Below, one piece after another: positions 20,354-37,215 of a stretch of 53,214 nucleotides of DNA. The position numbers were made by a program, and so were the translations under genes. A model generated the notes under the pieces. That model had not been told where the DNA came from. It searched no databases and saw only the letters and a list, made by a program, of their open reading frames with translations. The stretch is taken from the NCBI GenBank assembly GCA_041490745.1, contig JBGPTS010000002.1:1-53214 (forward strand), read 5' to 3'. Each line of letters starts with the position of its first letter. Within the stretch, counting starts at the first letter, position 1. The stretch is from Candidatus Binatia bacterium. GTDB lineage: Bacteria > Desulfobacterota > Binatia > UBA9968.

Positions 20354-20388
20354 GCTACCCAAGAAGCTACCCAGAAGCTACCCAAGAA
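20354..20388. repeat. three tandem 12/11/12-nt units spanning the ctaB stop codon
   Basis: gctacccaagaa gctacccagaa gctacccaagaa. On the minus strand each unit carries a TAG. Confidence 0.7.
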
Positions 20389-22275: not shown

Positions 22276-22289
22276 CCTTCCGCCCTTGT

Positions 22290-24032
22290 CTAGTGCGATC
22301 TCGCCGCGCTGCCGGCGCCCAACTGTCGGTTCTGCGGCAACCAGTCTTCCGTGACTTCCGGCGAGCTGTATTCGTACGGGCCGCGATAGACGACCGGCTG
22401 CGTCTCGTAATTTCCGTGCGGCGGCGGCGAGGCGGCGCTCCACTCGAGCGAGTTGGCGAGCCACGGATTGCGCTCGGCCTTCTTTCCGACAAAGAGGCTG
22501 GCGAAAAAATTGTAGATGAACGGAATTTGCGACAGACCCAGAAGAAAAGCGCTCACGGTAATGAAAACGTTGATGCCTTGAAGCGGCTGGAGAAATTCGT
22601 ATTGCATCGGGTTGTAGATGCGGCGCATGTGGCCGCCGACGCCGAGAATGTGCATCGGGAAAAACGCCCCGTTGAAGAAAATGTAAGTGAGAACGAAATG
22701 AATCTTTCCCAGCGGCTCGCTCATCATGCGGCCGAAAATCTTGGGAAACCAGTAATAAACCGCCGCGAACAGCGCGAAGATGATTCCCGCCACGACGTAA
22801 TGGAAGTGCGCGACGATGTAGTAGGTGTCGTGGATGAAAATATCGACCGGGGTCGCGGCCATAAAAATGCCGCTGAGTCCGCCGATGACGAAATTGGAGA
22901 CGAAGCCGAGGGCGAAGAGCATCGGCGAGCTAAACCGGATTGAGCCGCCCCAGAGCGTGCCGAGCCAGTTGAACGTCTTGATCGCCGAGGGAATCGCGAT
23001 CACCATCGTGGACATCATGAAGGCGGTGCCGAGCAGCGGGTTCATGCCGGAAACGAACATGTGATGGCCCCAGACGACCCAGGAGAGAAAGGCGATGGAG
23101 ATCATGGAGAAGGCCATCGCGTGATAGCCGAAGATGGGCTTGCGCGAAAACGTCGAGAGGATATCCGAGGTCACGCCCATCGCGGGCAGGACGAGAATGT
23201 AAACTTCCGGATGGCCGAAGAACCAGAAGAGATGCTGCCACAAAAGCGGCTCCCCTCCTCCTTGCGCGAGGAAGAAGCTCGTCCCGAACATGCGGTCGAA
23301 CAGAAGCATCGCCAGCGCGGCCGTGAGCACCGGCAGCGCGAGCAGCAAGAGGACGGCCGTGATGAAGAGCGACCAGATGGTGAGCGGCATGCGGAAGTAT
23401 GTCATGCCCGGCGCGCGCATGTTGACGATGGTCGTGATGTAGTTGATCGATCCCATCAGGGACGAGATGCCGAGGATAATGAGGCTGATGATCCAGAGGT
23501 GCTGGCCCCATTCGACGCCGGTGAACGACGCTTGCGCCGAGAGCGGCGCGTAGGAAGTCCAGCCGCCGGCCGCCGGCCCGCCGGGAACGAAAAAACTCGA
23601 CAGCATCACAATGCCGGAAACGAGGCCGACCCAGAAGGAAAGCATATTGAGCTTGGGAAACGCCATGTCGCCCGCGCCGATCATCAGCGGGATTAAAAAA
23701 TTGCCGAAGCCGCCGACCATGATCGGCATGACGACGAAGAAAATCATGATCGTCGCGTGCATGGTGAAAAACGCGTTGTAGGTCTGCGGCGGAATGATGC
23801 CGCCGTAGGCGTACGGTTCCGGAAGCCAGCCCAACCCCGGTACGGCCGTCTCCGGCCAGGCGAGCTCCCAGCGCATCGACATGGCCAGCAGACCGCCGAT
23901 GATCAGCATGAACAGGCCGAGAAAGATAAACTGCCGGCCGATCATCTTGTGATCCGTCGAAAAGACGTAGGTGCGTAAGAAGCCGAGCTCGTGATGGGCC
24001 GTCGCATGGGCTGTCGCCGTGTCACTCATCAT
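22290..24032 (-). CDS. coxA: cytochrome c oxidase subunit I
   Basis: 580 aa with WFFGHPEVYILVLP, GHHMF and HFHYV heme/CuB ligand motifs. Confidence 0.95.
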   Translation of the reverse strand: MMSDTATAHATAHHELGFLRTYVFSTDHKMIGRQFIFLGLFMLIIGGLLAMSMRWELAWPETAVPGLGWLPEPYAYGGIIPPQTYNAFFTMHATIMIFFVVMPIMVGGFGNFLIPLMIGAGDMAFPKLNMLSFWVGLVSGIVMLSSFFVPGGPAAGGWTSYAPLSAQASFTGVEWGQHLWIISLIILGISSLMGSINYITTIVNMRAPGMTYFRMPLTIWSLFITAVLLLLALPVLTAALAMLLFDRMFGTSFFLAQGGGEPLLWQHLFWFFGHPEVYILVLPAMGVTSDILSTFSRKPIFGYHAMAFSMISIAFLSWVVWGHHMFVSGMNPLLGTAFMMSTMVIAIPSAIKTFNWLGTLWGGSIRFSSPMLFALGFVSNFVIGGLSGIFMAATPVDIFIHDTYYIVAHFHYVVAGIIFALFAAVYYWFPKIFGRMMSEPLGKIHFVLTYIFFNGAFFPMHILGVGGHMRRIYNPMQYEFLQPLQGINVFITVSAFLLGLSQIPFIYNFFASLFVGKKAERNPWLANSLEWSAASPPPHGNYETQPVVYRGPYEYSSPEVTEDWLPQNRQLGAGSAARSH

Positions 24033-24035
24033 TCA

Positions 24036-24134
24036 CCTCGTGTTCGTGTTTCGTGTTCGTGCTCGTGATTGGGAATTCCGTTGCTCGCTACCAGCCCTTG
24101 CTTTACGAACACGAGCGACGATCACGAGACACGG
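24036..24134 (-). repeat. CACGA/TCGTG-rich REP/MITE-like element (long form) in the coxB-coxA spacer
   Basis: The reverse complement of 24103-24134 matches 34722-34747 at 25/26 nt. The reverse complement of 24036-24070 shares 23/23 nt with 34750-34772. This copy carries about 33 nt of extra spacer. Confidence 0.75.
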
Positions 24135-24137
24135 TAT

Positions 24138-24797
24138 TTATTTCTGAGGCCACGTCTCTTGGACCCACTTGGCGTATTCTTCCGGCCCATCCACGTAAAG
24201 CCAGCCCTTCATTCCGGAATGGCCGAAGCCGCAGAGCTCGGCGCAGGGCAGTTCGTACTTGCCGGGTTTCACCGCTTCGAACCAGACCAGAATGTCTTTT
24301 CCCGGCAGCGCGTCTTGCTTTAAGCGCAGGTTGGGCAGGAAAAAGCTGTGGATCACGTCTTTCGACTTGAGCACGACGTGGACGACTTTCTTGAGCGGAA
24401 CGTGGATGTCGTTATCGACCTGATAGTCGTCTTCGGTACCGAATTTGCCATCCGGCCCCGGATAGACAACTTCCCAGTTGAATTGCTTCGCCGTCACCTG
24501 CACCTCGACGTCGGCGGGAGGCGCGTGCGACTTGATTTTTCCCCAGGTGGAGACGCTCATGAACGACAACGTGAGAAACACGATGGCCGGAATGACCGTC
24601 CAGATAATCTCCAGCGTGGTGTTGCCGTGCGTGTAGGTGGCGCGGCGGCCCTCGCGGCGGCGGTACATGATGAGGAAAATAATCATCAACGCCGTCACGA
24701 GAATCAGCGCCGCGCCCGTGATGTAGTAGATGATGTAGAACAGGCGGTCGATCTCTCCGCCAAACGTCGAAACGTCCTCCGGCAGCCAGCTCATCAT
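24138..24797 (-). CDS. coxB: cytochrome c oxidase subunit II (CuA, no fused cytochrome c)
   Basis: Start at ATG 24797 (MMSWLPEDVSTFGGEIDRLF). CuA site HSFF...CAELCGFGHSGM. The upstream 76 codons of the listed ORF are AT-rich promoter sequence. Confidence 0.9.
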   Translation of the reverse strand: MMSWLPEDVSTFGGEIDRLFYIIYYITGAALILVTALMIIFLIMYRRREGRRATYTHGNTTLEIIWTVIPAIVFLTLSFMSVSTWGKIKSHAPPADVEVQVTAKQFNWEVVYPGPDGKFGTEDDYQVDNDIHVPLKKVVHVVLKSKDVIHSFFLPNLRLKQDALPGKDILVWFEAVKPGKYELPCAELCGFGHSGMKGWLYVDGPEEYAKWVQETWPQK

Positions 24798-25011
24798 GAG
24801 ATCAATTTTCCTTTTTTGGTTTATCCCGACCCAAAATTTTTTCGCGGCAAGGTTTTTCGATCCGTTCTTTTTCGATCGGGTTCTACTTTTTTGGTTCTTG
24901 CTAACATAGCCATGTGGCCTTTGCAAGAGGAATCGCCCGGTCCGCCGCGGCAACCGCGTAAAAACCCCGCGGCTTGAGCGGTTTTGAATATCGTGATAAT
25001 CATATATATCT

Positions 25012-25362
25012 ATGTCCGAGTCCAATTCCGGCCAGCTTCAAACCTTTAAAGCCGAATTCTTCAAGGCGCTGGCGCACCCGCTCCGCATCCGCATCCTGGA
25101 GCTCCTTCTCGAGGGCGAACAAAGCGTCCAGGAGATCCAACGCGCGCTCGGCATCGACCAGCCGGTCGTCTCGCAGCAGTTGGCGATCCTTCGCGGAAAG
25201 AACATCGTCGAGCCGCGCAAACAGGGCACGGCGGTTCGGTACGCCGTCCGCGATCGAGCCCTTGGGGAATTGCTCGGCGTCGCGCGCAAGATTTTCAACA
25301 ACCATCTTATGGGCACGCAAACCATGCTGCGCGAGCTGACGCGCGAGAGCCGAAGGCGATAA
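25012..25362 (+). CDS. ArsR/SmtB-family transcriptional regulator (cysteine-free)
   Basis: ALAHPLRIRILELLLEGEQSVQEIQRALGIDQPVVSQQLAILR winged-helix core. There is no Cys in the whole protein. No Shine-Dalgarno sequence is visible upstream. Confidence 0.85.
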   Translation: MSESNSGQLQTFKAEFFKALAHPLRIRILELLLEGEQSVQEIQRALGIDQPVVSQQLAILRGKNIVEPRKQGTAVRYAVRDRALGELLGVARKIFNNHLMGTQTMLRELTRESRRR

Positions 25363-25875
25363 GTGCGATTGTTTTCCAAAATTCTGCGCGTAGGCGTCGT
25401 CACCGAGCCCTTCGACGACGCGGGAGAAGAAGTCGAGCTCGCCAGGCAAGTGGCGGCAAAGACGCAAAAAGTCTTGGGGCGAGCCGTCGGAATCCGCCAG
25501 GTCGATGCCGGTTCGTGCAACGGGTGCGAGGTGGAGATCACCGGCTTGACGAGCCCGGTCTACGATCTGGAGCGCTTCGGCCTTCATTTCGTCGCCTCAC
25601 CGCGTCACGCTGACATGCTGCTGGTCACGGGACCGGTCACGCGGAATATGGAAGTGCCGCTGCGTAAAACGTACGAGGCCGCGCCGGACCCGAAGATCGT
25701 CGTCGCCGTCGGGGACTGCGCGAAAACGTGCGGCGTCTTTAAAGGAAGTTATGCCGTGGTAGGCGGTGTGGATACGGTCATTCCGGTCGATGTCTTCGTT
25801 CGTGGGTGCCCTCCTGAACCGGCCGACATCCTGCGCGGAATCCTGGCGGCCCTCGATCGCCTGCCGCCGAAGTGA
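25363..25875 (+). CDS. NuoB/HycG-like [4Fe-4S] small subunit of a group-4-hydrogenase-like complex
   Basis: GSCNGCEVEI...SPRHADMLLVTGPVT...GDCAKTCG...RGCPPEP. All four cluster Cys are retained. The GTG start directly follows the arsR stop. Confidence 0.85.
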   Translation: MRLFSKILRVGVVTEPFDDAGEEVELARQVAAKTQKVLGRAVGIRQVDAGSCNGCEVEITGLTSPVYDLERFGLHFVASPRHADMLLVTGPVTRNMEVPLRKTYEAAPDPKIVVAVGDCAKTCGVFKGSYAVVGGVDTVIPVDVFVRGCPPEPADILRGILAALDRLPPK

Positions 25876-27908
25876 ATGCGGACCTGACGCTCATGGGTGT
25901 TCTCGTCAACGGCGCAATCGTGTGTTATCTCGCGGGCGCGCTCGCCGCGCTGTCGGGCAACGATCGCCGGGGACGCTTACTGGGAGCCTCGGGCGCGCTT
26001 TTGGGCGCGGTCTTTTCGTTGGGCCTCGGAGTTACGGCGCTCGCGACCGGCTCGGTCTTCATCGCCTCCTTCGACTTTCTTCCGTTAACCGGACTGGCGC
26101 TCCGCATCGATGGGCTAAGCGCGCCGTTCCTCATTCTGACCGGGCTTGTCGGAGCGGCTTCGGCGGTTTACGGCTTCGGATACTCGGCGGCGTACGAAAA
26201 TGTTTATTCCCTGCGCAAACTGGGCGCGCTGTTCAATCTCTTGCTCCTCACGCTCACGCTCCAGGTCATGGCCGACAACGCGCTGACGTTTCTCCTCCTA
26301 TGGGAAGCCGTGTCGTTGCTCGCGTATCTCCTGGTGCTGACGGAGCATCGCGAGCCGGCGACCGTTCGAGCAGCAAACTGGTACGTCGCGATCACGCACG
26401 TCGGATTCGCCGCGTTGCTGGCGATGTTTTTTCTCCTCGCGGCCGGCGACCCGACGGCCGGTTTCGATACGCTGCGCGCCAACGCGCCCAACGTGACGGC
26501 GCGGAACGTAATTTTTCTCCTCGCGCTGATCGGGTTCGGCGCCAAAGCCGGCATGATTCCGCTCCACGTCTGGCTCCCGATGGCCCACCCCGTTGCGCCG
26601 AGCCATGTCTCCGCGCTCATGTCGGGGGTCGTCATCAAGATGGGCATTTACGGCTTTTGCCGCGTCGCGCTCGATCTCATGGGCGGCGGCCCCGCCTGGT
26701 GGGGCGGCGCGGTTCTCGCGTTGGGAGTCGGGTCGGCTCTCTTCGGCGTCCTCTATGCTTTGATGGAGCACGATCTCAAACGTCTGCTCGCGTATCACTC
26801 GGTGGAGAATATCGGCATCATCTTCATCGGCATCGGCGCCGGATTGCTGTTTCAAAGTTACGGCTTGACGAAGTTGGCCGTCCTCGGCTTCGTGGCGGCT
26901 CTGTATCACGCCATCAATCACGCCTGCTTCAAGGGGCTGCTGTTTCTCGGCGCGGGTTCGGTTCTGCACGCGACCGGCACGAGAAATATGGAAGAGATGG
27001 GCGGCCTCATCAGGAAGATGCCGCGCACCGCGCTCGCGTTTCTGATCGGCGCCGCGGCGATTTCGGCGCTCCCGCCGCTCAACGGATTCGCCTCCGAGTG
27101 GCTTCTCTTCCAGACGCTGCTGGGCGGCGCGCAAATCCCCGAGCCGGCGGTTGCCTTGATGATACCGATCGCGGTCGCCCTGCTGGCGCTCACGGGCGGT
27201 CTTGCCATGGCTTGTTTCGTCAAGGCTTTCGGCATCACGTTTCTTGCGATCCCCCGCTCCCATGCGGCGGAGCAGGCGCATGAATCTCCTGGGTCGATGC
27301 AGGCGGGCATGGGAATTCTCGGATTCGCCTGCGTCGCTCTCGGATTGACTCCGTTCCTGGTGGTTCCCGTGTTGGGCCGCGCCCTTGCGGGGATCGGCGG
27401 GCTCCCTTCGGACGCGGCGCTCTTTTCGCTCGCGCTGCCGCTCGGCGTTCCCGGCACGTCCGGCTCGATGTCCTCTCCGTTTCTAGCCGCCGGTTTGCTG
27501 ATCCTCCTCGGACTTGTCGCGCTCGCGCTCCGGCTCGCCGGCGTAAATCGTCGAACCCGCGTCGGCGACACTTGGGGTTGCGGCAGGATCGCGCAGACGC
27601 CGAGGATGCAGTATACGGCTACGGCCTTCGCCGAGCCGCTTCGGCGCGTCTTTGCCGAACTCTATCGACCCACGAAAGATCTCTCGATCGATTTTCATCC
27701 GGAGTCTAAATACTTTGTCCAATCCATCGAGTATCAGAGCGAAATTCACCCTTGGTTTGAAAAGCTGCTCTATCAACCGCTGATCGGAATTTTTCATAGG
27801 ATCGCCGATCGTGTCCGCGGGATACAAGCTGGCTGGCTGGGCCTTTACCTGACCTACATGCTCGTCGGTCTTATCGCGTTACTGGTTTTTGCGTGGTGGA
27901 TGCCATGA
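25872..27908 (+). CDS. HyfB/HycC/NuoL-like antiporter-type membrane subunit
   Basis: 678 aa, polytopic. Proton-conducting-transporter motifs (WEAVSLLAYLLV, GAKAGMIPLHVWLPMAHP). GTGA overlap with the upstream gene. Confidence 0.85.
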   Translation: MNADLTLMGVLVNGAIVCYLAGALAALSGNDRRGRLLGASGALLGAVFSLGLGVTALATGSVFIASFDFLPLTGLALRIDGLSAPFLILTGLVGAASAVYGFGYSAAYENVYSLRKLGALFNLLLLTLTLQVMADNALTFLLLWEAVSLLAYLLVLTEHREPATVRAANWYVAITHVGFAALLAMFFLLAAGDPTAGFDTLRANAPNVTARNVIFLLALIGFGAKAGMIPLHVWLPMAHPVAPSHVSALMSGVVIKMGIYGFCRVALDLMGGGPAWWGGAVLALGVGSALFGVLYALMEHDLKRLLAYHSVENIGIIFIGIGAGLLFQSYGLTKLAVLGFVAALYHAINHACFKGLLFLGAGSVLHATGTRNMEEMGGLIRKMPRTALAFLIGAAAISALPPLNGFASEWLLFQTLLGGAQIPEPAVALMIPIAVALLALTGGLAMACFVKAFGITFLAIPRSHAAEQAHESPGSMQAGMGILGFACVALGLTPFLVVPVLGRALAGIGGLPSDAALFSLALPLGVPGTSGSMSSPFLAAGLLILLGLVALALRLAGVNRRTRVGDTWGCGRIAQTPRMQYTATAFAEPLRRVFAELYRPTKDLSIDFHPESKYFVQSIEYQSEIHPWFEKLLYQPLIGIFHRIADRVRGIQAGWLGLYLTYMLVGLIALLVFAWWMP

Positions 27909-28846
27909 GCCGCTGGTCGGTGGAAATTTTCCAGGTCGTCTTCGCGGTGTTGGTGGCGCCGGGGCTGGTGGGTTTGATCCGCTGGATCAAAGCGCGGCTG
28001 CAGAGTCGGCTGGGCGCGCCGGTGTGGCAGCCGTACTTCGAACTCAGGAAACTTTTTCACAAGGAAGCCGTGGTCTCGACCAACGCGTCGTGGCTTTTTC
28101 GCTTTGCGCCGTACGCCGTCTCCGCCAGCACACTCGCGATCGTCTTTCTTGTTCCGGTGCTCGTGGCGCCGCGCGGTTTAGATAGCGTGGGGGACCTGTT
28201 CGTCGTCGTTTATTTGCTCCTGCTCGGAACCTTTTGGCTCGCGCTCGCCGGCCTCGATCCGGGGTCGGCCTTCGGCGGCATGGGCTCGAGCCGCGAGGTC
28301 ACCGTCGCCGCGCTCGCCGAGCCGACCACCGCCACGGCGATTTTCTCGCTGGCGCTCGGGGCCGGCTCGACCAATCTTGGAGCGATCGTTGTCGCGACGC
28401 TGAACGATCCCTGGACGGTATTGACGCCGGGCCACCTGCTGGCTTTTGCCGCGCTTTTTATCGTCGCCGTCGCCGAGACGGGCCGGCTTCCCGTCGACAA
28501 CCCGTCGACGCACCTGGAGCTGACGATGATTCACGAGGCGATGATCCTCGAATATTCCGGCCGATATCTCGCCCTGCTCGAATGGGCGGCGTGGCTGAAA
28601 CTTTTCATCTTCGTCTCGCTGCTCGCGAATCTGTTTTTTCCCTGGGGTATTGCAACGACGCTCACGCTGAGCGCGCTCTCGTGGGCTGCGATCGCGTTGC
28701 TCGTGAAGCTTCTGCTTCTCGCCATCGTGATCGCCGTGATGGAAACCCGCGTCGCCAAGCTCAGACTGTTTAGAGTGCCGGAGCTGCTCACCGCGTCGTT
28801 CCTGCTGGCCCTGCTTGCGATCACATCGTCGTTTCTCTTGAGGTAA
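27893..28846 (+). CDS. HycD/HyfC/NuoH-like membrane subunit
   Basis: 317 aa with about 8 TM helices. ETGRLPVDNPSTHLELTMIHEAMILEYSG is the NuoH/HycD signature region. Confidence 0.85.
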   Translation: MVDAMSRWSVEIFQVVFAVLVAPGLVGLIRWIKARLQSRLGAPVWQPYFELRKLFHKEAVVSTNASWLFRFAPYAVSASTLAIVFLVPVLVAPRGLDSVGDLFVVVYLLLLGTFWLALAGLDPGSAFGGMGSSREVTVAALAEPTTATAIFSLALGAGSTNLGAIVVATLNDPWTVLTPGHLLAFAALFIVAVAETGRLPVDNPSTHLELTMIHEAMILEYSGRYLALLEWAAWLKLFIFVSLLANLFFPWGIATTLTLSALSWAAIALLVKLLLLAIVIAVMETRVAKLRLFRVPELLTASFLLALLAITSSFLLR

Positions 28847-28849
28847 GAC

Positions 28850-29506
28850 ATGAGCCCGCTTTTTTCACAATTGGCCGTGCTGGGATCGAGCCTGACGCTC
28901 ATTTTCGCGCTGATGCTTTTGTGGCACCGCAGCGTTCATGCCTACACCACCGCCTTCATGTGGCAGTCGGTGGTTTTGGCCGCGATCGCCGCCGTCGTCG
29001 CCTACTTCGAGCGCGAGACCGAGCTGTACTTTGTCGCGGCGATGTTTCTGTTGTTGAAAGGATGGCTCATTCCGCGGCTCTTGCGCCGGATGGAAGAGCC
29101 GTTCGGCGCCGAGCAGGAGCTTCAACCTTACGTCAATACGGCGACCTCGCTGCTCGTCTGCGGTCTGCTCGTGTTGTTCGCCTACGCGGTGTGTCGCCCG
29201 GTCGTCGCATTGAGCCGCCTCCCGACCCGCGCGGGCATGCCTCTGGCGCTCGGCCTCATCTTCGTCAGCCTATTTGTCATCGCGAGCCGCAAGAAAGCCC
29301 TCACGCAGGTGATCGGGTTTCTCATGTTGGAAAACGGCATCGCCCTTCTCGCCGTGCTCGGGACTTACGGCATTCCCTTCGTCGTCGAGATCGGCGTCTT
29401 TCTGGATTTGTTGCTCGGCTTCATGGTGATGCAACTATTCATCTACCGCATTCGCGAGACGTTCGAGAGCATCGATGTCGAGCAACTCGGGAGACTGAGG
29501 CATTGA
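28850..29506 (+). CDS. HyfE-like (NuoK-related) membrane subunit
   Basis: 218 aa. GFLMLENGIALLAV is the NuoK-like motif. Its position matches the hyf gene order. Confidence 0.75.
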   Translation: MSPLFSQLAVLGSSLTLIFALMLLWHRSVHAYTTAFMWQSVVLAAIAAVVAYFERETELYFVAAMFLLLKGWLIPRLLRRMEEPFGAEQELQPYVNTATSLLVCGLLVLFAYAVCRPVVALSRLPTRAGMPLALGLIFVSLFVIASRKKALTQVIGFLMLENGIALLAVLGTYGIPFVVEIGVFLDLLLGFMVMQLFIYRIRETFESIDVEQLGRLRH

Positions 29507-29522
29507 CGGGAGGCGGCGCATC

Positions 29523-30977
29523 GTGATTTTTCTCCTGCTCTTGTTTCCGCCGCTTTTGGCGGCGGCCCTCGCCGCTCTGGTAAAACCGTACCGCGGCTGG
29601 GTCGGTTGGATCACCGCGGCGTTGTCCTTCGCTCCTCTGGGCGCGGCGCTGTCGATTTGCGCGCGCGTGCTGGAGGGGGAAGTCTTGACGTCGGGCGCGG
29701 GAGAATTCTTGCGCGCCGACGGGCTTTCGGCTCTTCTCGCCCTCTGCATCGGTTTTGTCGCCGCGCTGGCGGCGTGGCTCGGTCCGGGGCTGGCCGTGGA
29801 CGACGGCTACGACGCGGCGGAGCGCCGGAGCTATCGCGTCTTCTCGAATTTGTTTGCGTTCACCATGCTCCTCGCGGTCACGGCGCACAACGTGGGCGTG
29901 ATGTGGGTGGCCGTGGAGGCGACGACCATCACGTCCGCGATGCTCATTCCGCTCCATATCACGAAGGCGTCGGTGGAAGCGTCGTGGAAGTACATACTGA
30001 TCGGCTCGGTCGGCATCGCCCTGGCATTCGTCGGAACGGTCTTGGCCTACTTCGATTTCGTCAACCTCGCCGGCGAGCAGCCTACCGCGCTCAACTGGAC
30101 CTCGCTCCTCCACTCCGCGCCCGTCCTCCACGACGCGGTGCTCAAGCTCGCGTTTGTTTTCATTCTGATCGGTTACGGGACCAAGGCCGGCCTTGCACCC
30201 ATGCACACATGGCTGCCGGACGCCCACTCCGAATCGCCGTCGGCGCTCTCGGCGATGATGTCCGGCGTTTTGCTCGCGGTGGCGATTTACGCGATCGTGC
30301 GCTGGAAGATCGTCGTCGATGCCGCCGTCGGGCCGGCGTTTACCAACCGGCTCCTCATCGCGCTGAGCCTCCTGTCGCTCGCGATCGCCGCGTTCAGTCT
30401 GATCGGCCAGCGCAATTACAAGCGGATGCTGGCGTATTCGAGTATCGAGCACACCGGTCTCACCTGCCTGGGCCTGGCGCTCGGTCCGCTGGGAATATTC
30501 GCCGCCATGCTGCACATGGTCAATCATACGGTGACCAAATCGATGATGTTTCTGCTCGCCGGGCGCGTTCAACAGCGGTACCGATCGACCGAGATCGCCG
30601 AGGCGACCGGTCTCGCGGGAACGATGCCGGTCACGGCGGGCTTTTTCGCCGCGGGAATGTTCGCGATCGCGGGCCTGCCGCCGTTCGGGCTGTTTATTTC
30701 CGAATTTGCTCTGGTGCGCGCCGGTTTTGCCGCCGGGCGAGCGTGGCTCATGGCCGCGGTGCTCGTGCTGGTCGTCGTGGCGTTCACGGCGCTCGTGACG
30801 CATTTGAACCGCATGCTCTACGGGACGCCGCCCCAGTCGATTTTTGTCGGAGAACGGGAGCGCTGGGCGCTCGTGCCGCCGGCGCTCTGCCTGCTGATTC
30901 TGCTGATTCTGGGTTTGATGTTGCCCGAGCCGTTCAGCCGGTTGCTCAACAAGGTCGTGGAGATCGCCGCGCCATGA
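29523..30977 (+). CDS. HyfF/NuoM-N-like antiporter-type membrane subunit
   Basis: 484 aa. GYGTKAGLAPMHTWLPDAHSESP and YSSIEHTG motifs. Confidence 0.85.
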   Translation: MIFLLLLFPPLLAAALAALVKPYRGWVGWITAALSFAPLGAALSICARVLEGEVLTSGAGEFLRADGLSALLALCIGFVAALAAWLGPGLAVDDGYDAAERRSYRVFSNLFAFTMLLAVTAHNVGVMWVAVEATTITSAMLIPLHITKASVEASWKYILIGSVGIALAFVGTVLAYFDFVNLAGEQPTALNWTSLLHSAPVLHDAVLKLAFVFILIGYGTKAGLAPMHTWLPDAHSESPSALSAMMSGVLLAVAIYAIVRWKIVVDAAVGPAFTNRLLIALSLLSLAIAAFSLIGQRNYKRMLAYSSIEHTGLTCLGLALGPLGIFAAMLHMVNHTVTKSMMFLLAGRVQQRYRSTEIAEATGLAGTMPVTAGFFAAGMFAIAGLPPFGLFISEFALVRAGFAAGRAWLMAAVLVLVVVAFTALVTHLNRMLYGTPPQSIFVGERERWALVPPALCLLILLILGLMLPEPFSRLLNKVVEIAAP

Positions 30978-32551
30978 AGGATTTCGGCTCGATCGTCGAA
31001 TCATTGGAGCGAGTCTTATCGGGGCGCGCGACTTCGTGCCGGATCGCGCGTGGCAACGAGCTTCATTGCCGCGTCGATCGGATCGCCGTCCGGGATCTGT
31101 TCGAAACGCTGAGCCGAACGTTCGGCGCCGAACTCATGCTCATGGTGGGAAACGACCGCCGCGAGGACCGGGGCGGCTTCGAAATCCATTACTTGTTTGC
31201 CCACCCGCGAGAAAATTGGTTCGTCGACGCGGCCGTGCCGGTGGCGGCGGACGATCCGGCAATCGATTCGCTGGGAACGGTCTGTTACCCCGCGTCCCGA
31301 TTCGAGCGCGAGATCTTCGATCTCTTCGGTATTGTTGCGACGGGCCACCCCGATCCGCGTCCGCTGGTGCGCCACGGATTTTGGCCCAGGGATTATTTCC
31401 CGCTCAGAAAAGACGCGCGCCCGAGAGAGTTCGCGGACGACGGCCGGCCATTCCCGTTCCAGGAAGTCGGCGGCGAGGGCGTGTACGAGATTCCCGTCGG
31501 GCCGGTGCACGCCGGCGTGATCGAGCCGGGACATTTTCGTTTCAGCGTCGTCGGCGAAACCATCATCGACATGAAGGCGCGCTTTTACTTCACGCACAAG
31601 GGAACCGAGAAGCTGTTCGAGGGACGGACGCCCTTCGAAGGCGTCGAACTCGGCGAGCGTATCTCGGGGGACACCACGATCGGGCATGCTCTCGCATACT
31701 GCCAGGCGATCGAGTCGTTGAGCGAAGTCGCCGTGCCGCCGCGCGCGCGCTATCTTCGCGCGGTTCTTTTGGAGCTGGAGCGACTCTACAATCACGTCGC
31801 CGATTTCGGCATGATCGCCAACGATACGGGTTTTGCCTTCGCGCACTCGCACTGCTTCAGGATCCGCGAGCGGCTGCTCCGGCTCAACAAGCGCTTGACC
31901 GGCAACCGTCTTATGCGCGGCAGCCTGATTCCCGGGGGCGTCGTCCGGGACTTGCCGCTGGATTTCGACCTTGCCGGCGAGGTCGAGTCGGCGCTCGCGG
32001 ATTTCCACGAGATCGCCGAGATTACTCTTGCGAACGGAATGGTCACCGATCGTCTGGAAGGCACGGGTCGCCTCGCGACGGCGACGGCGCGCGATCACGG
32101 CGTCGTCGGCTTTGTGGCGCGCGCGTCCGGCATCGATGCCGATGCGCGGCGCGACCACCCTTTTGCCGCCTACGGCGAGCTCAAGTTCCGTGTCCCGGTG
32201 CTCGAATCCGGCGACGTCAAAGCGAGGACGCTCGCGCGCGTGGCAGAGACGCGCGAGTCGGCGCGACTTATTCGTCAAGCGATCGAGCGGCTGCCTGCGG
32301 GAGCGCTGTCGGTCCCATTGAACGCGCTCCCGGCTTTCGAGCCGGCCTTTTCCGTCGTCGAGGGCTGGCGCGGCGCGATCGTTCATTGGCTCATGGCGGA
32401 CGCGAGCGGGAGACTCTATCGCGTGAAGATCACGGACCCATCGTTTAGAAACTGGCGCTCGCTTTCCTACGCGCTGCTGAAAAACATCGTTCCCGATTTT
32501 CCCCTCTGCAACAAGTCGTACAACCAGTCGTATTCAGGCAATGATCTCTAG
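30974..32551 (+). CDS. fused NuoC-NuoD / HycE-like 'large subunit' lacking all four Ni-Fe cysteine ligands
   Basis: The ATG at 30974 makes an ATGA overlap with the upstream stop. IPVGPVHAGVIEPGHFRF core. ERISGDTTIGH replaces RxCGxCxxxH. The C-terminus NQSYSGNDL* replaces DPCxxCxxR. Only the last 525 codons of the listed 981-aa ORF are genuine. Confidence 0.85.
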   Translation: MKDFGSIVESLERVLSGRATSCRIARGNELHCRVDRIAVRDLFETLSRTFGAELMLMVGNDRREDRGGFEIHYLFAHPRENWFVDAAVPVAADDPAIDSLGTVCYPASRFEREIFDLFGIVATGHPDPRPLVRHGFWPRDYFPLRKDARPREFADDGRPFPFQEVGGEGVYEIPVGPVHAGVIEPGHFRFSVVGETIIDMKARFYFTHKGTEKLFEGRTPFEGVELGERISGDTTIGHALAYCQAIESLSEVAVPPRARYLRAVLLELERLYNHVADFGMIANDTGFAFAHSHCFRIRERLLRLNKRLTGNRLMRGSLIPGGVVRDLPLDFDLAGEVESALADFHEIAEITLANGMVTDRLEGTGRLATATARDHGVVGFVARASGIDADARRDHPFAAYGELKFRVPVLESGDVKARTLARVAETRESARLIRQAIERLPAGALSVPLNALPAFEPAFSVVEGWRGAIVHWLMADASGRLYRVKITDPSFRNWRSLSYALLKNIVPDFPLCNKSYNQSYSGNDL

Positions 32552-32571
32552 AGCGGACGGGCGCCGCCACG

Positions 32572-33126
32572 TTGCGCAACGCTCTTTGGAATGCTAAGCG
32601 AAGGAACTGTTCTTTTGGAACCCACGTGAACTTTCTCGCCGTCTTAGAGAACGCGAATCTCTGGCTCCATCTCCTTGCCGCGTCCGTTTGGGTCGGCGGA
32701 ATGATCTTCTTTCTCTTTGTCTTCGGTCCCGCGGCGCGCAGCCTCGCGCCGTCCGAGCGCTTGCGCGCGCTCGACCACGGGCGCGAATCGTTCCAAATGT
32801 TGTCGTGGATCGCGATCCTTCTTCTGTTTCTCACCGGCGCGCTGAATGTTTACTTTCGCGCCGCGGCGGGCGGCAGTCATTTCGGTCCGGGTTATTATTC
32901 GATTCTCGGCATCAAGCTGCTGCTCTTTGTCGCGATGATTTTTCATCACTCGCTGCAGGCGTTCAAATACGGGCCGAGACTCGCGTCCGCGAAAATCGAG
33001 GACACCGGCGGCGCATGGCCGGAGCCTCTCGTCGCCGCCGAGAAAAAATGGTTCACGCTCTTGAAAATCAACATGACCCTCGGCGTGATCGTGTTGCTGC
33101 TTGGCTGGGGTCTCGCCGGAAAATAA
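32572..33126 (+). CDS. 4-TM membrane protein, weakly CopD-like (start TTG 32572 or GTG 32626)
   Basis: NLWLHLLAASVWVGGMIFF resembles the CopD-family first helix. The stop lies 2 nt before the ggt ATG. Confidence 0.45.
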   Translation: MRNALWNAKRRNCSFGTHVNFLAVLENANLWLHLLAASVWVGGMIFFLFVFGPAARSLAPSERLRALDHGRESFQMLSWIAILLLFLTGALNVYFRAAAGGSHFGPGYYSILGIKLLLFVAMIFHHSLQAFKYGPRLASAKIEDTGGAWPEPLVAAEKKWFTLLKINMTLGVIVLLLGWGLAGK

Positions 33127-33128
33127 AA

Positions 33129-34715
33129 ATGGCGAACACATTCACCGCGGGCCGCTCGATGCCGGTGGGACGGCGCGGCATGGTCGTCTCGTCGCAGCCG
33201 CTCGCGACGCAGGCGGGGCTGGAGGTCTTGAAGCGCGGCGGCAATGCCGCCGACGCGACCGTGGCGATGGCCGCGGTGCTGAACGTGGTCGAGCCCATGT
33301 CCACGGGCATCGGCGGCGACGCGTTCGTTTTGATCTATGTCGCCAAGACCGGAGGGATCCAGGCGCTGAACGCCAGCGGACGCGCGCCGTACGCCGCGAC
33401 GCTCGATTATTTTCGAAAGAAAAAGATCGCCGCCGTTCCCGACGCCGGCATGCTGCCGGTCACCGTGCCCGGCGCGCTCGACGGCTGGGCGCTCGTCGCC
33501 GAGCGCTACGGTACGCGGAGCTTGGGAGATTTGCTTCAGCCGGCGATCGACTACGCGGAGAAAGGTTTTCCCGTGGCCGAGAAAACCGCCCACGAATGGG
33601 CCAAGGCGGCGGAGAAATTATCCGCTCACGCGAATTCCGCGGCCGGCTATCTCGTGAACGGCCGCGCGCCGCGCGCGGGAGAAATTTTTCGCCAGCAAAA
33701 TCTCGCCGCGAGCCTTAAGAAAATTGCCGCCGAAGGAAAACAAGTTTTCTACGGCGGCGAGCTGGCCGAAGAGATCGTCCGGTTTTCCGAGCAAAACGGC
33801 GGCCTGTTGTCGCTCAAAGACTTCAAAGACCATACCTCCGCCTGGGTCGAGCCGATCAAGACCTTTTATAAAGGATACGAAATCGTCGAGATACCGCCGA
33901 ACACGCAGGGAATGACCGTGCTCCAGATGCTGAACATGCTGGAGCGCTTCGATATCCGCGCGCTCGGCTTCGGCAGCGCCGCCTACATTCACTTGCTCGT
34001 CGAGATCAAAAAACTCGCCTTCGCCGACCGCGACGCTTACCTCGCCGACCCGGAGGCCGTCCACGTGCCGGTCGAGAAATTAATCGGCAAATCTTACGCC
34101 GCCGAGAGGGCGAAGCGGATCGATCCGGACCGCGCGCGGGAATATTCTCCCGGCCTCGGCGCGGTGTCGGGCGACACGCAGGTCTTTTGCGCCGTGGACA
34201 AGGACGGCAACGCGGTCGCGTTCATCAACAGTCTCTTCGAGAGCTTCGGTTGCGGCCTCGTCGGCGGCGACACCGGCGTCATGCTGCAAAACCGCGGCAA
34301 GCTCTTCTCGCTCGATCCCAAACATCCCAATTGCATCGCGCCGCGCAAGCGCTCACAGCACACGATCATGCCGGCGATGGTGTTCAAGGACAAAAAGCCG
34401 TTTCTGATTTTCGGCGTCACCGGCGCGCACATGCAACCGCAAGGACAGGTGCAGGTGCTGGCGAATTTGATCGATTTCGAGATGCCGCTGCAAGCGGCGA
34501 TGGACGCGCCGCGCGTCAATCACATCGAGGGCTTCGACGTCGCGCTCGAAGCCGGTTTTTCAACGGCGGCGCATGAGGAATTGAAGCGCAAGGGGCACAA
34601 AATCTTAAGCGAAGCCAACTTCGGCGGCAGCCAGGGAATTCTGATTCATCCCGAATTCGGCACGCTCGCCGGCGGCTCCGACCCGCGCAAGGACGGCTGC
34701 GCGATGGGATACTGA
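33129..34715 (+). CDS. ggt: gamma-glutamyltransferase family protein, no signal peptide
   Basis: ATG at 33129 (MANTFTAGRSMPVGRRGMVVSSQPLAT). Ntn autoprocessing site GDTQVF. PRKRSQHTIMP and GGSDPRKDG motifs. Confidence 0.9.
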   Translation: MANTFTAGRSMPVGRRGMVVSSQPLATQAGLEVLKRGGNAADATVAMAAVLNVVEPMSTGIGGDAFVLIYVAKTGGIQALNASGRAPYAATLDYFRKKKIAAVPDAGMLPVTVPGALDGWALVAERYGTRSLGDLLQPAIDYAEKGFPVAEKTAHEWAKAAEKLSAHANSAAGYLVNGRAPRAGEIFRQQNLAASLKKIAAEGKQVFYGGELAEEIVRFSEQNGGLLSLKDFKDHTSAWVEPIKTFYKGYEIVEIPPNTQGMTVLQMLNMLERFDIRALGFGSAAYIHLLVEIKKLAFADRDAYLADPEAVHVPVEKLIGKSYAAERAKRIDPDRAREYSPGLGAVSGDTQVFCAVDKDGNAVAFINSLFESFGCGLVGGDTGVMLQNRGKLFSLDPKHPNCIAPRKRSQHTIMPAMVFKDKKPFLIFGVTGAHMQPQGQVQVLANLIDFEMPLQAAMDAPRVNHIEGFDVALEAGFSTAAHEELKRKGHKILSEANFGGSQGILIHPEFGTLAGGSDPRKDGCAMGY

Positions 34716-34777
34716 CTCGTTACTCGTGATCGTGGCTCGTGTTCGTAAACGAGCACGAACACGAAACACGAGCACGG
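34716..34777 (+). repeat. CACGA/TCGTG-rich REP-like element (short form) between convergent stops
   Basis: ctcgttactcgtgatcgtggctcgtgttcgtaaacgagcacgaacacgaaacacgagcacgg. Both arms match the 24036-24134 element in opposite orientation. Confidence 0.75.
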
Positions 34778-35869
34778 TTAGAATTGTTTCCTTATTAAAA
34801 TCTCTTCCATAATTTTCTTCGCCACGTCTCCCAGCTCGTCGGCTTTCTCGGGCGGCACCAGCAGGAGAGGAACCTTCTTCTGCTCCAACTGCGAGACCTC
34901 TTCGTAAATCGACTTGACGTCTTTGTGCCCCGGGATGCGGCCGGTCGCGGCGAGAATCTTCGCCCCCTCGGCCGAGAGGATGAAATCGGCGAACAGCGCC
35001 GCGGCGTGCGGATGCGGCGCGTTGCGGTTGATTCCGGCGAGACTCCCCACCGAGCCGGGCGTCGGATTGGGGAAGTTCATGCCGACCGGGCATTTCCTTT
35101 CGTATTTGAGCTGCGCCACGCGATACGCGTAAAGCTCCACGCCGATCTTGAACTCGCCGCCGCAGAGAAGCTGGATCTGCTGCGTGTGGCCGCGGCGCGC
35201 GACCATGCCGTTACGCATGAGCCGCTTGAGGAAGTCGCGCGTCTTCTCCTCGCCCCACGCGACGAGCCATCCCATCAGCGCGCGGTCCGGCTCCTGGTCG
35301 ATGGAGAGGTCGCCTTTCCATTTGGGATTGAAGAGGTCCGGGTAATCCTTGGGCGCCTCTTCCGGCTTCACCAATTTGGTGTTATAGGCGATCACCGCGA
35401 TGTTCATGTGACTCGAGCTCCAGAGCCCCTTTTCGTCCGCAAATGTTTTTGAATAATTCCGCATCTCCGGCGACCGATAAGGTATCCAGACATTTTCCTT
35501 TTTGAGGGCCAAGCCGGCTTCGAAGGGGACATTGACCACGTCGGCATCGAGCTTTTTCGCGCGGTGCTCCAATAATACTCTGTCCACCAGCCGCGCGCCG
35601 CTGCCGCGCCAGTAATCGGCCGCGACGAACGGATAACGCTTCATGAAACCTTGGGCCTGCTGCTGCAGCAGATCGATATTCTCGTTGGAGTAAAACTGGA
35701 CCGCGCCCTCTTTTTTTGCCCCTTCTTCGAGACGCTTTTGCCGTTCGGCGGGGGGAAGCTTGTTGATCTCGTTCAGAGTCTCTTCGACCGTTTTCGGCGC
35801 CGAAGCCGCCAGATTTCCCAGGGCGAGAAAAACCACCGCGCCTGAGAGCCATCGCGATGCGCTGTTCAT
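34778..35869 (-). CDS. extracellular solute-binding protein (family 1, iron/polyamine-type), orphan
   Basis: ATG at 35869 preceded by AGGAGG. Signal peptide MNSASRWLSGAVVFLALGNLAASA. No permease or ATPase gene is adjacent. Confidence 0.8.
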   Translation of the reverse strand: MNSASRWLSGAVVFLALGNLAASAPKTVEETLNEINKLPPAERQKRLEEGAKKEGAVQFYSNENIDLLQQQAQGFMKRYPFVAADYWRGSGARLVDRVLLEHRAKKLDADVVNVPFEAGLALKKENVWIPYRSPEMRNYSKTFADEKGLWSSSHMNIAVIAYNTKLVKPEEAPKDYPDLFNPKWKGDLSIDQEPDRALMGWLVAWGEEKTRDFLKRLMRNGMVARRGHTQQIQLLCGGEFKIGVELYAYRVAQLKYERKCPVGMNFPNPTPGSVGSLAGINRNAPHPHAAALFADFILSAEGAKILAATGRIPGHKDVKSIYEEVSQLEQKKVPLLLVPPEKADELGDVAKKIMEEILIRKQF

Positions 35870-35891: not shown

Positions 35892-37208
35892 TCACGGCGC
35901 CAGCGGTTCATCCTTCAGCGGCGCAAGCCGCAAACCGCCGGCGAAGGGATTGTCGAAAGGCTCTTCGACCGCGCGCATCCCCTGCCAGATTTTTTCGATC
36001 CTGTCTTTCGCCCCGTTCGTATTCAATCCTTCGATGACGATCACGCGCCGGTCTCGGCGCTCGACGTGAGCCGCGGCAAACGGCGCGCCGGGATATTTTT
36101 TTTCCAGCAAGCGCCGGTAGCCCCGATCGAATTCGGCCGCGTCCTCGTCCGAATCCCAGACGCTCGCCCAGATAAAGGCGACTTCATCGCCGCGGTTGAA
36201 GGCGACGAAGCGGTCGCCGTCCCATCCCTCGGCGGCGACCCTGGCCTCGTCTTTCGAGAGAAACTGCTCGAACAGCACGCGCGTCGTCAGCTCGCCGAGG
36301 ACGTTATTCTCGATCTCCTTCCAATCCGGTTGAAAGAACGCCCGCAGCTCTCGGAGCTCGACTCGGGTCGGCGGGTCGGGCGCGGAAAAATATTTTTCCG
36401 GATGGAGCACCTGCTCGGTCGAGAGCGGCGGCGCGGCGTAAAGCCGGTTGACCGCGCTCCAGTCGCGCTCCTCGAGCAAGCGCGCAACGAAGCCGACGCC
36501 GCCGTAATATTGGAACAACATTTCTTCGACGATCGCCTTGGGCACGTCCGGCGCCCGCGCGCCTGCGTCGCGCTCGATGTCTTTAACGCCCCGGGTAAAA
36601 TCGGCGAGCGCGTTGCGGTCGATCCCGCCTCGGATATAGCCGAAGCCGATCAACGTCGCGTCGCCCTCGACAAGGGCGCGAAACGCGAGATCCCGGTCGT
36701 CGTTCTCCGACGGGCCGAGCTTCGACTCCAACAAAAAATACTGGTCCTGGAGCGCGTGCGTGAGCTCGTGCGCCAGCGTCATCTCGCCGACTAAATCCCG
36801 GCGCCCGCCCGCCGCCGGGTCCGCGTCCAGATTTTCCGGCAGCACGAGCTTTTTGCTCCGGGGATCGTAGTAGCCGGCCACGTTGGCCGCGGCGAAATCG
36901 ACCAGCGATTTTTTCAAATCGGTTCCCTTGGGCAGCAAGCCGAGCTTGCCATAGGCGAGCGAGATATTTTTCAGCTTCTGGTCGCTGAAGTCGTGCGCCA
37001 GATCCTTTTCGAATGCGCGCCGCATCTCCTCGGGATTCTTGATTTCGACGGCGACTTCCGCCCGGAAGGCCAGACCGCGGAGCCGGGCCACGCCCTGCTT
37101 GATGTCGAGAAATTTTTCGCGATTGATTGCGGCACGATCGGCAACCTGATAGGGCGCGCAGCCGGCGGCGAAAAAAAACGCGATGAGAAGAAGCAGCGCG
37201 GCAGCCAA
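35892..37208 (-). CDS. putative zinc metalloprotease lipoprotein (HExxH)
   Basis: A TTG at 37208 with AGGA 5 nt upstream is the only in-frame ATG/GTG/TTG start codon downstream of ATG 37346, and the only one that does not deeply overlap the upstream gene. Lipobox LIAFFFAAGC. MTLAHELTHALQDQ plus a downstream EGDATL. Confidence 0.55.
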   Translation of the reverse strand: MAAALLLLIAFFFAAGCAPYQVADRAAINREKFLDIKQGVARLRGLAFRAEVAVEIKNPEEMRRAFEKDLAHDFSDQKLKNISLAYGKLGLLPKGTDLKKSLVDFAAANVAGYYDPRSKKLVLPENLDADPAAGGRRDLVGEMTLAHELTHALQDQYFLLESKLGPSENDDRDLAFRALVEGDATLIGFGYIRGGIDRNALADFTRGVKDIERDAGARAPDVPKAIVEEMLFQYYGGVGFVARLLEERDWSAVNRLYAAPPLSTEQVLHPEKYFSAPDPPTRVELRELRAFFQPDWKEIENNVLGELTTRVLFEQFLSKDEARVAAEGWDGDRFVAFNRGDEVAFIWASVWDSDEDAAEFDRGYRRLLEKKYPGAPFAAAHVERRDRRVIVIEGLNTNGAKDRIEKIWQGMRAVEEPFDNPFAGGLRLAPLKDEPLAP

Positions 37209-37215
37209 GGCGATC

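Follow-up and report, generated by a model that had tools for sequence, protein, structure and literature searches.

What does a respiratory membrane complex do when it is built like a group 4 [NiFe] hydrogenase and has no cysteine left to hold the Ni-Fe centre? The question is raised by a stretch of 53,214 nt from a Candidatus Binatia bacterium (Desulfobacterota, Binatia, UBA9968; GenBank assembly GCA_041490745.1, contig JBGPTS010000002.1, positions 1 to 53,214), referred to here as the window. An earlier note on this DNA had described nine co-directional, tightly packed genes at 25012-34715, and read them as one operon for an Ehr-type hydrogenase-like complex lacking Ni-Fe ligation, headed by an ArsR-family regulator and coupled to a CopD-like protein and a gamma-glutamyltransferase (GGT). 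Listing of the open reading frames (ORFs) and profile searches confirmed the nine genes, and the Ehr assignment is borne out by homology to Rv0081-Rv0087 of Mycobacterium tuberculosis and by motifs shared with it, while the coupling to the CopD-like protein and GGT fails. We are highly confident that the window from 24934 to approximately 32600 is a self-contained cassette of an ArsR gene and six genes for subunits. With equal confidence, we assign it to the family of Rv0081-Rv0087, whose gene order it shares, and read it as encoding an Ehr-class complex. Taken as a whole, the locus is best explained, on a modest balance of probability, as an Ehr cassette encoding a reversible redox-driven ion pump that runs from a soluble donor to quinone.

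The large subunit EhrL (30974-32551; 525 aa; this and all other cassette genes are on the forward strand) is a fused NuoC-NuoD/HycE-like protein with matches to Pfam Complex1_30kDa, Complex1_49kDa, and NiFeSe_Hases. Its best relative by sequence and by fold (TM-score 0.82) is HycE, and the fold search returned only HycE and NuoCD. In the alignment to Escherichia coli HycE (7z0s_E; HMMER E-value 4.8e-75), RISGDTTIGH lies opposite RVCGICGFAH and NQSYSGNDL-stop lies opposite DPCYSCTD(R), which places Ser231, Thr234, Ser519, and Gly522 at the four positions of the Ni-Fe cysteines. EhrL matches neither the L1 motif (RxCGxCxxxH) nor the L2 motif (DPCxxCxx[HR]) of [NiFe] group 4. The former L1 motif, ERISGDTTIGH, is located at 31655-31687 and the former L2 motif, NQSYSGNDL-stop, at 32522-32551, just as the earlier note had read them. 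Among 83 aligned sequences from several phyla, mycobacteria included, residues E228, R229, S231, G232, D233, and H238 of the first motif are invariant and position 234 is T or S; S519, Y520, G522, D524, and L525 of the second are also invariant, and N523 is kept in 82 of the 83. The same residues occur in all 82 aligned relatives, excluding a loss of the cysteines through sequencing error. Over the whole protein, 204 of 525 positions are at least 95% conserved in this alignment. The EPGHFR loop shows no variation and has the same sequence in HycE, and the C-terminus of EhrL is at the position of the C-terminus of mature HycE. HycI cleaves HycE after an Arg at that site, so no endopeptidase step would be required for EhrL. 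Judged from these residues, the complex cannot bind Ni-Fe and is not a [NiFe] hydrogenase.

Cysteine-less proteins of this kind make up a large family. EhrL has thousands of close relatives, with source names including Methylomirabilota/Rokubacteria, NC10, and Binatia, and a HMMER search of 1.84 billion cluster representatives with EhrL as the query returned 1259 matches at E-values of 1e-30 or below. Among the best 150 of these 1259, approximately 110 are Cys-less at all four ligand positions, with E-x-[IV]-S-G-D... and S-F-N-L-S-Y-[SA]-G-x-D-L-stop in place of the metal motifs; S-G-D and S-Y-x-G-x-D-L are the constants of this wider family and position 234 is variable. A C-terminal extension was found in none of the Cys-less relatives among these 150. 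A further 21 to 24 of the 150 have all four cysteines (ER[IV]CGxC..SH and SFELCYxC.DR). The nearest four-cysteine relatives are 38% to 46% identical to EhrL (best P0302, 442 bits), have the same length and no C-terminal extension, and are presumably the group 4f "Ehf" [NiFe] hydrogenases of HydDB, next to which Ehr has been placed (PMC10284858). In a rough neighbor-joining tree, which has no support values and is indicative only, the four-cysteine group is basal and the Cys-less proteins form a single derived clade.

The remaining five structural genes complete a subunit set like that of group 4 hydrogenases (small, large, NuoH-like, and antiporter-like), as assigned by Pfam, NCBIfam, and PDB matches. 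The NuoB/HycG-like small subunit EhrS (25363-25875; 170 aa; Pfam Oxidored_q6, E-value 1.3e-32) retains the four [4Fe-4S] cysteines that the earlier note had counted, C52, C55, C119, and C149, which are invariant in 56 homologues from several phyla. Its top PDB matches are HycG (7z0s_G, E-value 4.7e-41) and MbhJ, and its CxxC is of the hydrogenase type, not the tandem-Cys N2 motif of complex I. Two subunits are of the antiporter type: the HyfB/HycC/NuoL-like EhrA (25872-27908; 678 aa), which has a C-terminal extension and scores 690 bits, above the cut-off, with the NCBIfam model for hydrogenase 4 subunit B, and the HyfF/NuoM-N-like EhrD (29523-30977; 484 aa), which matches hydrogenase 4 subunit F with an E-value of 4.8e-128 at 428 bits, below the cut-off of 610. 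The membrane arm also includes the HycD/NuoH-like EhrB (27893-28846; 317 aa; Pfam NADHdh, E-value 1.1e-41) and the small HyfE-like EhrC (28850-29506; 218 aa; NCBIfam hydrogenase 4 membrane subunit, E-value 3.2e-23, with a score of 82.7 bits below the cut-off of 136). The top PDB matches of EhrA and EhrB are HycC (7z0s_C, E-value 1.2e-74) and HycD (7z0s_D, E-value 4.1e-41). Conservation was read for each subunit from alignments of 44 to 83 sequences, mycobacteria included. Both antiporter-like subunits keep the canonical Glu, Lys, and His residues (E145, K225, H346, H350, K354, and E409 in EhrA; E132, K221, H331, H335, and K339 in EhrD, all invariant), EhrC has invariant K70, E90, E161, E180, and D186, and many acidic residues of EhrB are invariant. 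Strict selection on the replacement pocket residues, the FeS ligands, and the ion-channel residues alike speaks for a functional pump, coupled to redox chemistry, whose active site has been remodelled. The gene junctions are those of the earlier note (TAA/GTG at 25360/25363, GTGA at 25872, the overlap at 27893, and ATGA at 30974), except that EhrB may start at ATG 27905, in an ATGA overlap, rather than at GTG 27893.

The seven genes of the cassette recur in identical order in M. tuberculosis (ArsR, small subunit, HyfB-, HycD-, HyfE-, and HyfF-like subunits, large subunit). Contigs of the M. tuberculosis complex (MTBC) and of M. riyadhense were recovered through Rv0081, with L083 as the MTBC locus. 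By BLASTP the window proteins pair one-to-one with Rv0081 to Rv0087 at 47, 62, 42, 50, 37, 41, and 48% identity, in that order, the last value (EhrL against Rv0087) holding over the full length. Rv0087 shares the derived motifs, as ERISGDTSAAH and a terminal NQSYAGNDL-stop, and the patterns ERISGDT[TS]..H and N[QL]SY[SA]GNDL-stop are common to the window, Rv0087, and Rhodococcus. The genomic settings differ: in M. tuberculosis, the DosR-regulon genes Rv0079 and Rv0080 stand before the locus and Rv0088 (polyketide cyclase) after it, whereas the window cassette lies between coxII and the gene for the CopD-like protein. Rv0081-Rv0087 has been designated "hyc", a predicted formate hydrogenlyase, and has also been called EHR, with its function undetermined (PMC6728331). 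Clear orthology to an already characterised complex, which the earlier note had named as a result that would speak against its reading, is present in a weak form: the M. tuberculosis operon is well known and there are studies of how it is regulated, but none that settles its biochemistry. Hypoxic induction (DosR, MprA) and autorepression are hallmarks of this type of operon, and of these the window shows an operator-like palindrome. The literature searched contains no report on the biochemistry or structure of any Ehr, Hyq, or Rv0082-87 complex, and the open literature searched gives no demonstrated function for the Ehr family, as the earlier note had stated. Among the MTBC contigs, L084 differs from L083 by a 4.4-kb deletion (L083 9534-13955) that removes most of Rv0084 through Rv0087, and in both the Rv0081 product is a 140-aa variant with an altered C-terminus, compared with 114 aa for the PDB protein.

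To look at conservation of the cassette across genomes, we scanned relatives at one genome per species, which returned 80 loci, and read conserved gene content by tblastn with the nine window proteins. The closest loci by identity are from Binatia (80% to 87%), followed by Methylomirabilota, Acidobacteriota, Chloroflexota, and others (60% to 74%). Of the 48 loci with enough sequence, 46 have the complete set of six structural genes. The co-occurrence with ArsR that the earlier note had proposed to check across genomes holds: 33 of 47 loci have an ArsR homologue immediately before the small-subunit gene, and another 6 have one within 2.5 kb. On this sequence evidence the ArsR gene and the six subunit genes travel together in Binatia, Methylomirabilota, Acidobacteriota, Chloroflexota, and mycobacteria. 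Clustering of flanking ORFs (five per side, 80 loci) revealed nothing conserved beyond the lineage level; many of the greedily called flanking ORFs in GC-rich loci are wrong-frame artefacts, and the largest cluster (13 loci, Methylomirabilota) is a LemA/TPM-like pair, as judged by eye. A NuoI/HycF-type 2x[4Fe-4S] subunit is present neither in the operon nor in the window, nor in the conserved cassette of the 80 loci. In some loci a 2-kb insert between the small subunit and HyfB was considered as a site for an electron-input gene and rejected, as it holds a second HyfB paralogue. Pfam scans of the other called ORFs of the 53-kb window (approximately 40 ORFs of at least 100 aa) found no hyp, hycI, NuoI/ferredoxin, formate dehydrogenase (FDH), or NuoEF genes, in agreement with the absences listed in the earlier note.

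The cassette also occurs on Rhodococcus and Rhizobium plasmids. A search of plasmid proteins identified Rhodococcus copies 49% identical to the window protein, with the small subunit first and no ArsR, beside IS110 and integrase genes. One of these (L086, linear plasmid pRZP3 of Rhodococcus sp. ZPP, 3137-10425) comprises the six structural genes of the mycobacterial type without ArsR; next come a transposase gene of IS110 and three genes for integrases or recombinases. The Rhodococcus plasmid context suggests horizontal movement of the cassette. The same search found rhizobial, Azospirillum, and Burkholderia clusters of the hyq type at 40% to 43% identity. A bacterial-type ArsR-Ehr cassette with a duplicated HyfB is also present on a contig labelled Nitrosotalea sp. 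(L020, 2212-11575; EhrL 73% identical to that of the window), which may reflect mis-binning or horizontal transfer. Ehr genes in ammonia-oxidizing archaea have been mentioned (PMC10432482).

The boundaries of the cassette are drawn by comparison with the cassette-free locus L088. By blastn, L088 and the window are collinear at 82% to 85% nucleotide identity over 19675-24933 and from 32611 to approximately 40200, and L088 has only 47 bp in place of window positions 24934-32610. The stretch between coxII and copD is thus a variable site, at which the control region and the seven genes form an indel. By this comparison, the window lineage may have gained the cassette or L088 may have lost it, and no direct repeats or mobile-element genes flank it.

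The regulator is a Rv0081-type member of the ArsR/SmtB family (25012-25362; 116 aa; Pfam HTH_5, E-value 8.6e-13; NCBIfam NF033788). As the earlier note had stated, it has no Cys. Its best PDB match is Rv0081 (6jmi_A, E-value 7.5e-20), ahead of BigR (9e-13), and it shares the SQQL residues of the recognition helix with Rv0081. By these features it is of the Rv0081 type, which lacks alpha3 and alpha5 metal sites and reads DNA with Ser/Gln residues. Rv0081 is reported to have neither a metal site nor Cys and to repress its own operon from an inverted repeat that lies upstream (bioRxiv 10.1101/465575). In the window, the control region owned by the cassette (24934-25011, forward strand) begins where blastn collinearity with L088 ends; it is conserved in the Binatia loci L001 and L002 and missing from L088. 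It includes an operator-like imperfect palindrome of 19 nt, ATATCGTGATAATCATATA (24988-25006, forward strand), with its last base 5 nt before the ArsR ATG and a possible -10 box, GATAAT (24995-25000), inside it. Four Binatia loci (L001, L002, L005, and L006) each contain the pattern ATATNGTGATAAYCATATA once, at the same position, and the other 80 loci lack it. In loci of other phyla, the corresponding place is taken by AT-rich palindromes that follow TTGACA, and the operator sequence of M. tuberculosis differs from that of the window. By analogy with the autoregulation of Rv0081, the ArsR protein probably represses the operon from this promoter-overlapping, AT-rich palindrome. A second inverted repeat, TCTTGCTAA(N15)TTTGCAAGA at 24896-24928, is in the coxII-proximal part of the intergenic region and is conserved in L088, L001, and L002. 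As it is also present in the cassette-free L088, it belongs to cox/copD control and not to the Ehr operon. A scan of 24700-35100 for promoters and terminators returned nothing informative, the terminator-like matches being intragenic and hardly above those of shuffled sequence.

Among known systems, the subunit names used here are those of the Ehr complex of Geobacter sulfurreducens. This complex is reportedly encoded by GSU0739-45 and is said to have been treated by Coppi in 2005 and by Marreiros and colleagues in 2013. It also comprises EhrB and EhrD, and its EhrL is reported to lack the Ni-Fe motifs. The likeness to the window complex is by subunit types, as described in the literature. Named Geobacter subunits include a NuoL-like EhrA, a HyfE-like EhrC, the large EhrL, and the small EhrS; Ehr subunits have been detected as proteins and are more abundant on formate (PMC7894505).

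The Hyq complexes of Azorhizobium caulinodans and Rhizobium leguminosarum (hyqRBCEFGI) have six homologous subunits and, like the window, no equivalents of HyfA, HyfD, or HyfH. The Hyq large subunit is likewise a NuoC::NuoD fusion without CxxC, 43% identical to EhrL, and the Hyq small subunit shares 56% identity with EhrS; in R. leguminosarum HyqG the first motif is GRTSGDSTVAY, with Tyr in place of His238, and the C-terminus is NCSYSGHDL-stop. The gene order is R-B-C-E-F-G-I (annotation of L085), with the small subunit last, whereas it is first in the window cassette. HyqR was considered as a relative of the window ArsR and rejected, as it has an XRE-like helix-turn-helix and no BLAST match to it. 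The Hyq operon is NifA-dependent and part of the nif regulon (PMC2650096), and no nif genes are present in the window. Deletion of hyqRBCEFGI alters the electron and H2 balance in diazotrophs (PMC3357923). A seven-gene cluster of Methylocystis that HydDB labels "group 4f", with the motif ...AARVS..., resembles the Cys-less Hyq type, and some clusters labelled 4f may be Ehr or Hyq; at pH 5 this cluster is induced 16- to 20-fold, and formate dehydrogenases are induced with it (bioRxiv 10.1101/2025.08.29.672306).

Formate hydrogenlyase (FHL) of E. coli, with hydrogenase-3 and -4 (group 4a; 7z0s), is the nearest solved structure for the four subunits searched (matches HycE, HycC, HycD, and HycG). 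Unlike E. coli FHL, the window complex has no HycF (NuoI-type), HycB, or FdhF, no Ni-Fe cysteines, and no C-terminal extension of the kind processed by HycI; it has two antiporter-like subunits and a HyfE, as in Hyf and not in Hyc. Complex I (NDH-1) shares homologous Q-module and membrane-arm subunits and has no Ni-Fe site either. However, the NCBIfam NuoD model gives EhrL 230 bits, below its cut-off of 360, and the NuoD, NuoB, and NuoH scores are all below cut-off except for a generic NuoB subfamily model. Compared with the 11 to 14 subunits of NDH-1, the window has only six structural genes, without NuoA, E, F, G, or I or a third antiporter. The alignment of the 525-aa protein that the earlier note had suggested gives HycE as the best match (256 bits), compared with 118 bits for MbsL (6u8y_L), and the Mrp-module genes of the 13-subunit MBS/MBX sulfane-sulfur reductase are absent from the window. 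Membership in [NiFe] group 4, complex I, the Hyq gene order, and MBS/MBX were each considered and set aside, as their defining features are lacking here.

We tentatively propose, as a mechanism that is plausible and somewhat short of probable, that the complex is a reversible, ion-translocating oxidoreductase with one FeS cluster and not a hydrogenase, most likely linking a low-potential soluble donor to quinone. Its peripheral module consists of the NuoB-like subunit, with one [4Fe-4S] cluster, and the fused NuoC-NuoD-like subunit, and its membrane arm of the NuoH-like, the HyfE-like, and two Mrp/NuoL-M-N-like subunits. EhrS would be the direct docking site of a soluble carrier of low potential whose gene lies elsewhere and which is ferredoxin-like or receives its electrons from formate oxidation, as proposed from the lack of a NuoI/HycF-type subunit. 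The one FeS cluster would hand the electrons on to a proton-coupled site where EhrL, EhrS, and the NuoH-like subunit meet, with the invariant Ser-Gly-Asp ... Ser-Tyr-x-Gly-Asn-Asp-Leu-COO- and the conserved EPGHFR loop as its lining. Membrane quinone would most likely be the acceptor, and the redox reaction would drive H+ (or Na+) through the two antiporter-like subunits. In reverse, quinol would give up electrons to the low-potential carrier at the expense of the membrane potential. Hints of a link to formate or another low-potential donor come from the Geobacter proteomics, the co-expression in Methylocystis at pH 5, and the Hyq phenotypes, although the last could equally reflect an altered electron supply to nitrogenase.

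Several observations weigh against this mechanism. No donor, acceptor, or partner gene is conserved beside the cassette in the 80 loci, so that both ends of the reaction are inferred. In the alignment to 2fug_4, the quinone-ligand positions of complex I fall on the invariant Gly232 and Ile183. In Thermus thermophilus Nqo4, these ligands of the quinone head group are Tyr87 and His38. With Gly232 and Ile183 at these positions, any quinone site would be non-canonical. To our knowledge, no characterised member of the group 4/complex I superfamily lacks a NuoI-type subunit, and direct docking on EhrS would be unprecedented. The AlphaFold2 monomer of EhrL has a pTM of 0.83, yet its pLDDT is below 50 at residues 163-208 and 501-525, which makes the model unreliable precisely at the pocket. 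Finally, the papers on Hyq interpret a 43%-identical relative as a hydrogenase (PMC2650096, PMC3357923).

We give a low probability to a different use of the same parts, in which the Cys-free pocket beside a [4Fe-4S] cluster and a hydrogenase-type proton path would be a new catalytic site and not a quinone site. Such a site may carry out hard-metal or metal-free activation of H2/H+, as the Hyq genetics would require, or reduce another small molecule. A Cys-free hydrogenase of the Hyq "endo-hydrogenase" kind, with H2 oxidized or evolved at EhrL and electrons exchanged with quinone, also appears unlikely to us. The hyqRBCEFGI deletion raised H2 evolution approximately 15-fold in diazotrophic cultures and lowered it at <1 uM O2 (PMC3357923, PMC2650096); S-G-D and S-Y-S-G-x-D-L-stop are found in both R. 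leguminosarum HyqG and EhrL, and the latter keeps the EPGHFR proton-path loop of true group 4 hydrogenases. Set against this, none of the four metal-ligating Cys is present anywhere in the clade, no hyp genes are encoded in the window, and the M. tuberculosis complex has been stated to be non-functional as a hydrogenase, since the hyp genes are lacking (PMC6728331). The Hyq authors themselves called a Ni-Fe site "uncertain, if not unlikely" and reported no cell-free assay (PMC3357923), and the H2 phenotypes are possibly indirect, as a change in the electron supply to nitrogenase would change its H2 output.

It is similarly improbable that the complex is a redox-independent cation/proton antiporter or ion sensor, in which an Mrp-like arm does the work beneath a peripheral cap whose Ser/Asp/Asn pocket binds a hard cation. 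The canonical Lys/Glu residues, all kept in the two antiporter-like subunits, would fit such a function, as would the O-ligand-rich pocket (S231, D233, S519, N523, D524, and the C-terminal carboxylate), the lack of an encoded electron-input module, and the acid-stress induction of the related Methylocystis cluster (bioRxiv 10.1101/2025.08.29.672306). However, the four [4Fe-4S] cysteines, invariant in 56 sequences, are hard to square with a structural cap. Furthermore, Mrp antiporters (for example, structures 6z16 and 7qru) function without homologues of NuoB, NuoD, or NuoH.

The genes on either side of the cassette bear on another explanation, which we consider very unlikely for the window and which is refuted as a statement about the family: that the complex, the CopD-like protein, and a cytoplasmic GGT act as one unit on a thiol- or gamma-glutamyl-linked substrate and form a respiratory island with the aa3 oxidase. 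The CopD-like protein (32626-33126, forward strand, with an alternative start at TTG 32572; four transmembrane segments; PF05425, 37 bits) has homologues of 165 to 168 aa that begin MNLPAV..., and its start is likely GTG 32626, giving approximately 166 aa and not 184 aa as first read, so that the gap after EhrL is 74 nt and not 20. The GGT family protein (33129-34715, forward strand; 528 aa; TIGR00066, 460 bits) has no N-terminal hydrophobic stretch. The two genes are co-directional with the complex, at gaps of 74 and 2 nt and with no terminator-like site between, and the Binatia locus L004 is arranged likewise. Among the 60 related loci with at least 2.5 kb of downstream sequence, L004 is the only one in which GGT is found within 1.5 kb downstream of the complex, so that the cross-genome co-occurrence of GGT and CopD with Cys-less operons, which the earlier note had proposed as a check, is not observed. 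In the Binatia loci L001 and L003, approximately 8 kb separates the complex from CopD-GGT; this segment (L001 11578-19506, L003 4144-12032) has few confident ORFs, one of them response-regulator-like. Mycobacterial, Rhodococcus, Rhizobium, and Burkholderia copies have unrelated neighbours.

Loci without the complex are consistent with this. In the window, the aa3-type oxidase cluster (CoxII, CoxI, CtaA, CtaB, two COX3, and DUF420, by Pfam) is at 17774-24797 on the reverse strand, outside the cassette like the CopD-like and GGT genes. L088 has CtaB, CtaA, CoxI, and CoxII head-to-head with CopD-like, GGT, and solute-binding-protein genes on the opposite strand and no cassette between; L089 has CopD, GGT, and a solute-binding protein with neither cox nor Ehr, and L090 has cox head-to-head with CopD-like, with neither GGT nor Ehr. 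Neither the functional coupling to CopD-like and GGT nor the respiratory island with the aa3 oxidase that the earlier note had suggested survives this comparison. A lack of conservation of GGT and CopD with the complex, which that note had listed among the results speaking against its reading, is what the loci show. By gene arrangement, CopD-like and GGT are a pre-existing neighbour pair (L088, L089), and these two and the aa3 oxidase are neighbours of the complex by position only. CopD-GGT is probably read through from the cassette in the window, given the 74-nt gap and no terminator between, which would be a consequence of position and not a conserved partnership. In relatives, the CopD-like gene is the ancestral divergent neighbour of the aa3 cluster, a hint that the CopD-like protein may serve in copper delivery.

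That the cassette is a decaying relic of a formate hydrogenlyase-type hydrogenase, no longer functional, might account for the lost metal ligands and the lost NuoI-, HycB-, and FdhF-type partners, but it has next to no probability, being contradicted by the conservation pattern (intact reading frames throughout, the highly conserved EhrL, and replacement residues that are themselves invariant), by a cassette that is whole in nearly all loci across phyla, and by the detection of the Geobacter subunits as proteins (PMC7894505).

Two further features of the window lie apart from the complex. A 484-aa ORF at 35892-37346 on the reverse strand has no Pfam match, although its L088 counterpart is listed as DUF8575, and it is conserved in the window, L088, and L004, each time flanked by two solute-binding-protein genes. 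At 3-9671, a row of MoxR AAA ATPase, DUF58, BatA/VWA, DUF4159, and GATase1-like genes forms a cluster of the "Bat" aerotolerance type.

Ehr complexes have been catalogued for approximately twenty years without a function, and one of them is located in the hypoxia-response neighbourhood of M. tuberculosis. The window cassette is a Binatia-type member of a family known from Methylomirabilota, Acidobacteriota, nitrifiers, Geobacter, rhizobia, and mycobacteria, and adds little that is new in kind. What is gained are the boundaries of the cassette, the cross-phylum invariance of its remodelled pocket, and the removal of a misleading clue, as the GGT/CopD association is a positional accident that should not steer experiments. 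The unit of inheritance is a Rv0081-type repressor with six subunits, so partner genes are to be sought elsewhere in the genome and not next door. If the proposed mechanism were demonstrated, the complex would stand as a minimal module of the complex I kind, and there would be an explanation for a conserved M. tuberculosis operon linked to hypoxia. If the pocket is instead a new catalytic site, a very widespread complex of soil bacteria and mycobacteria would be carrying out unknown chemistry.

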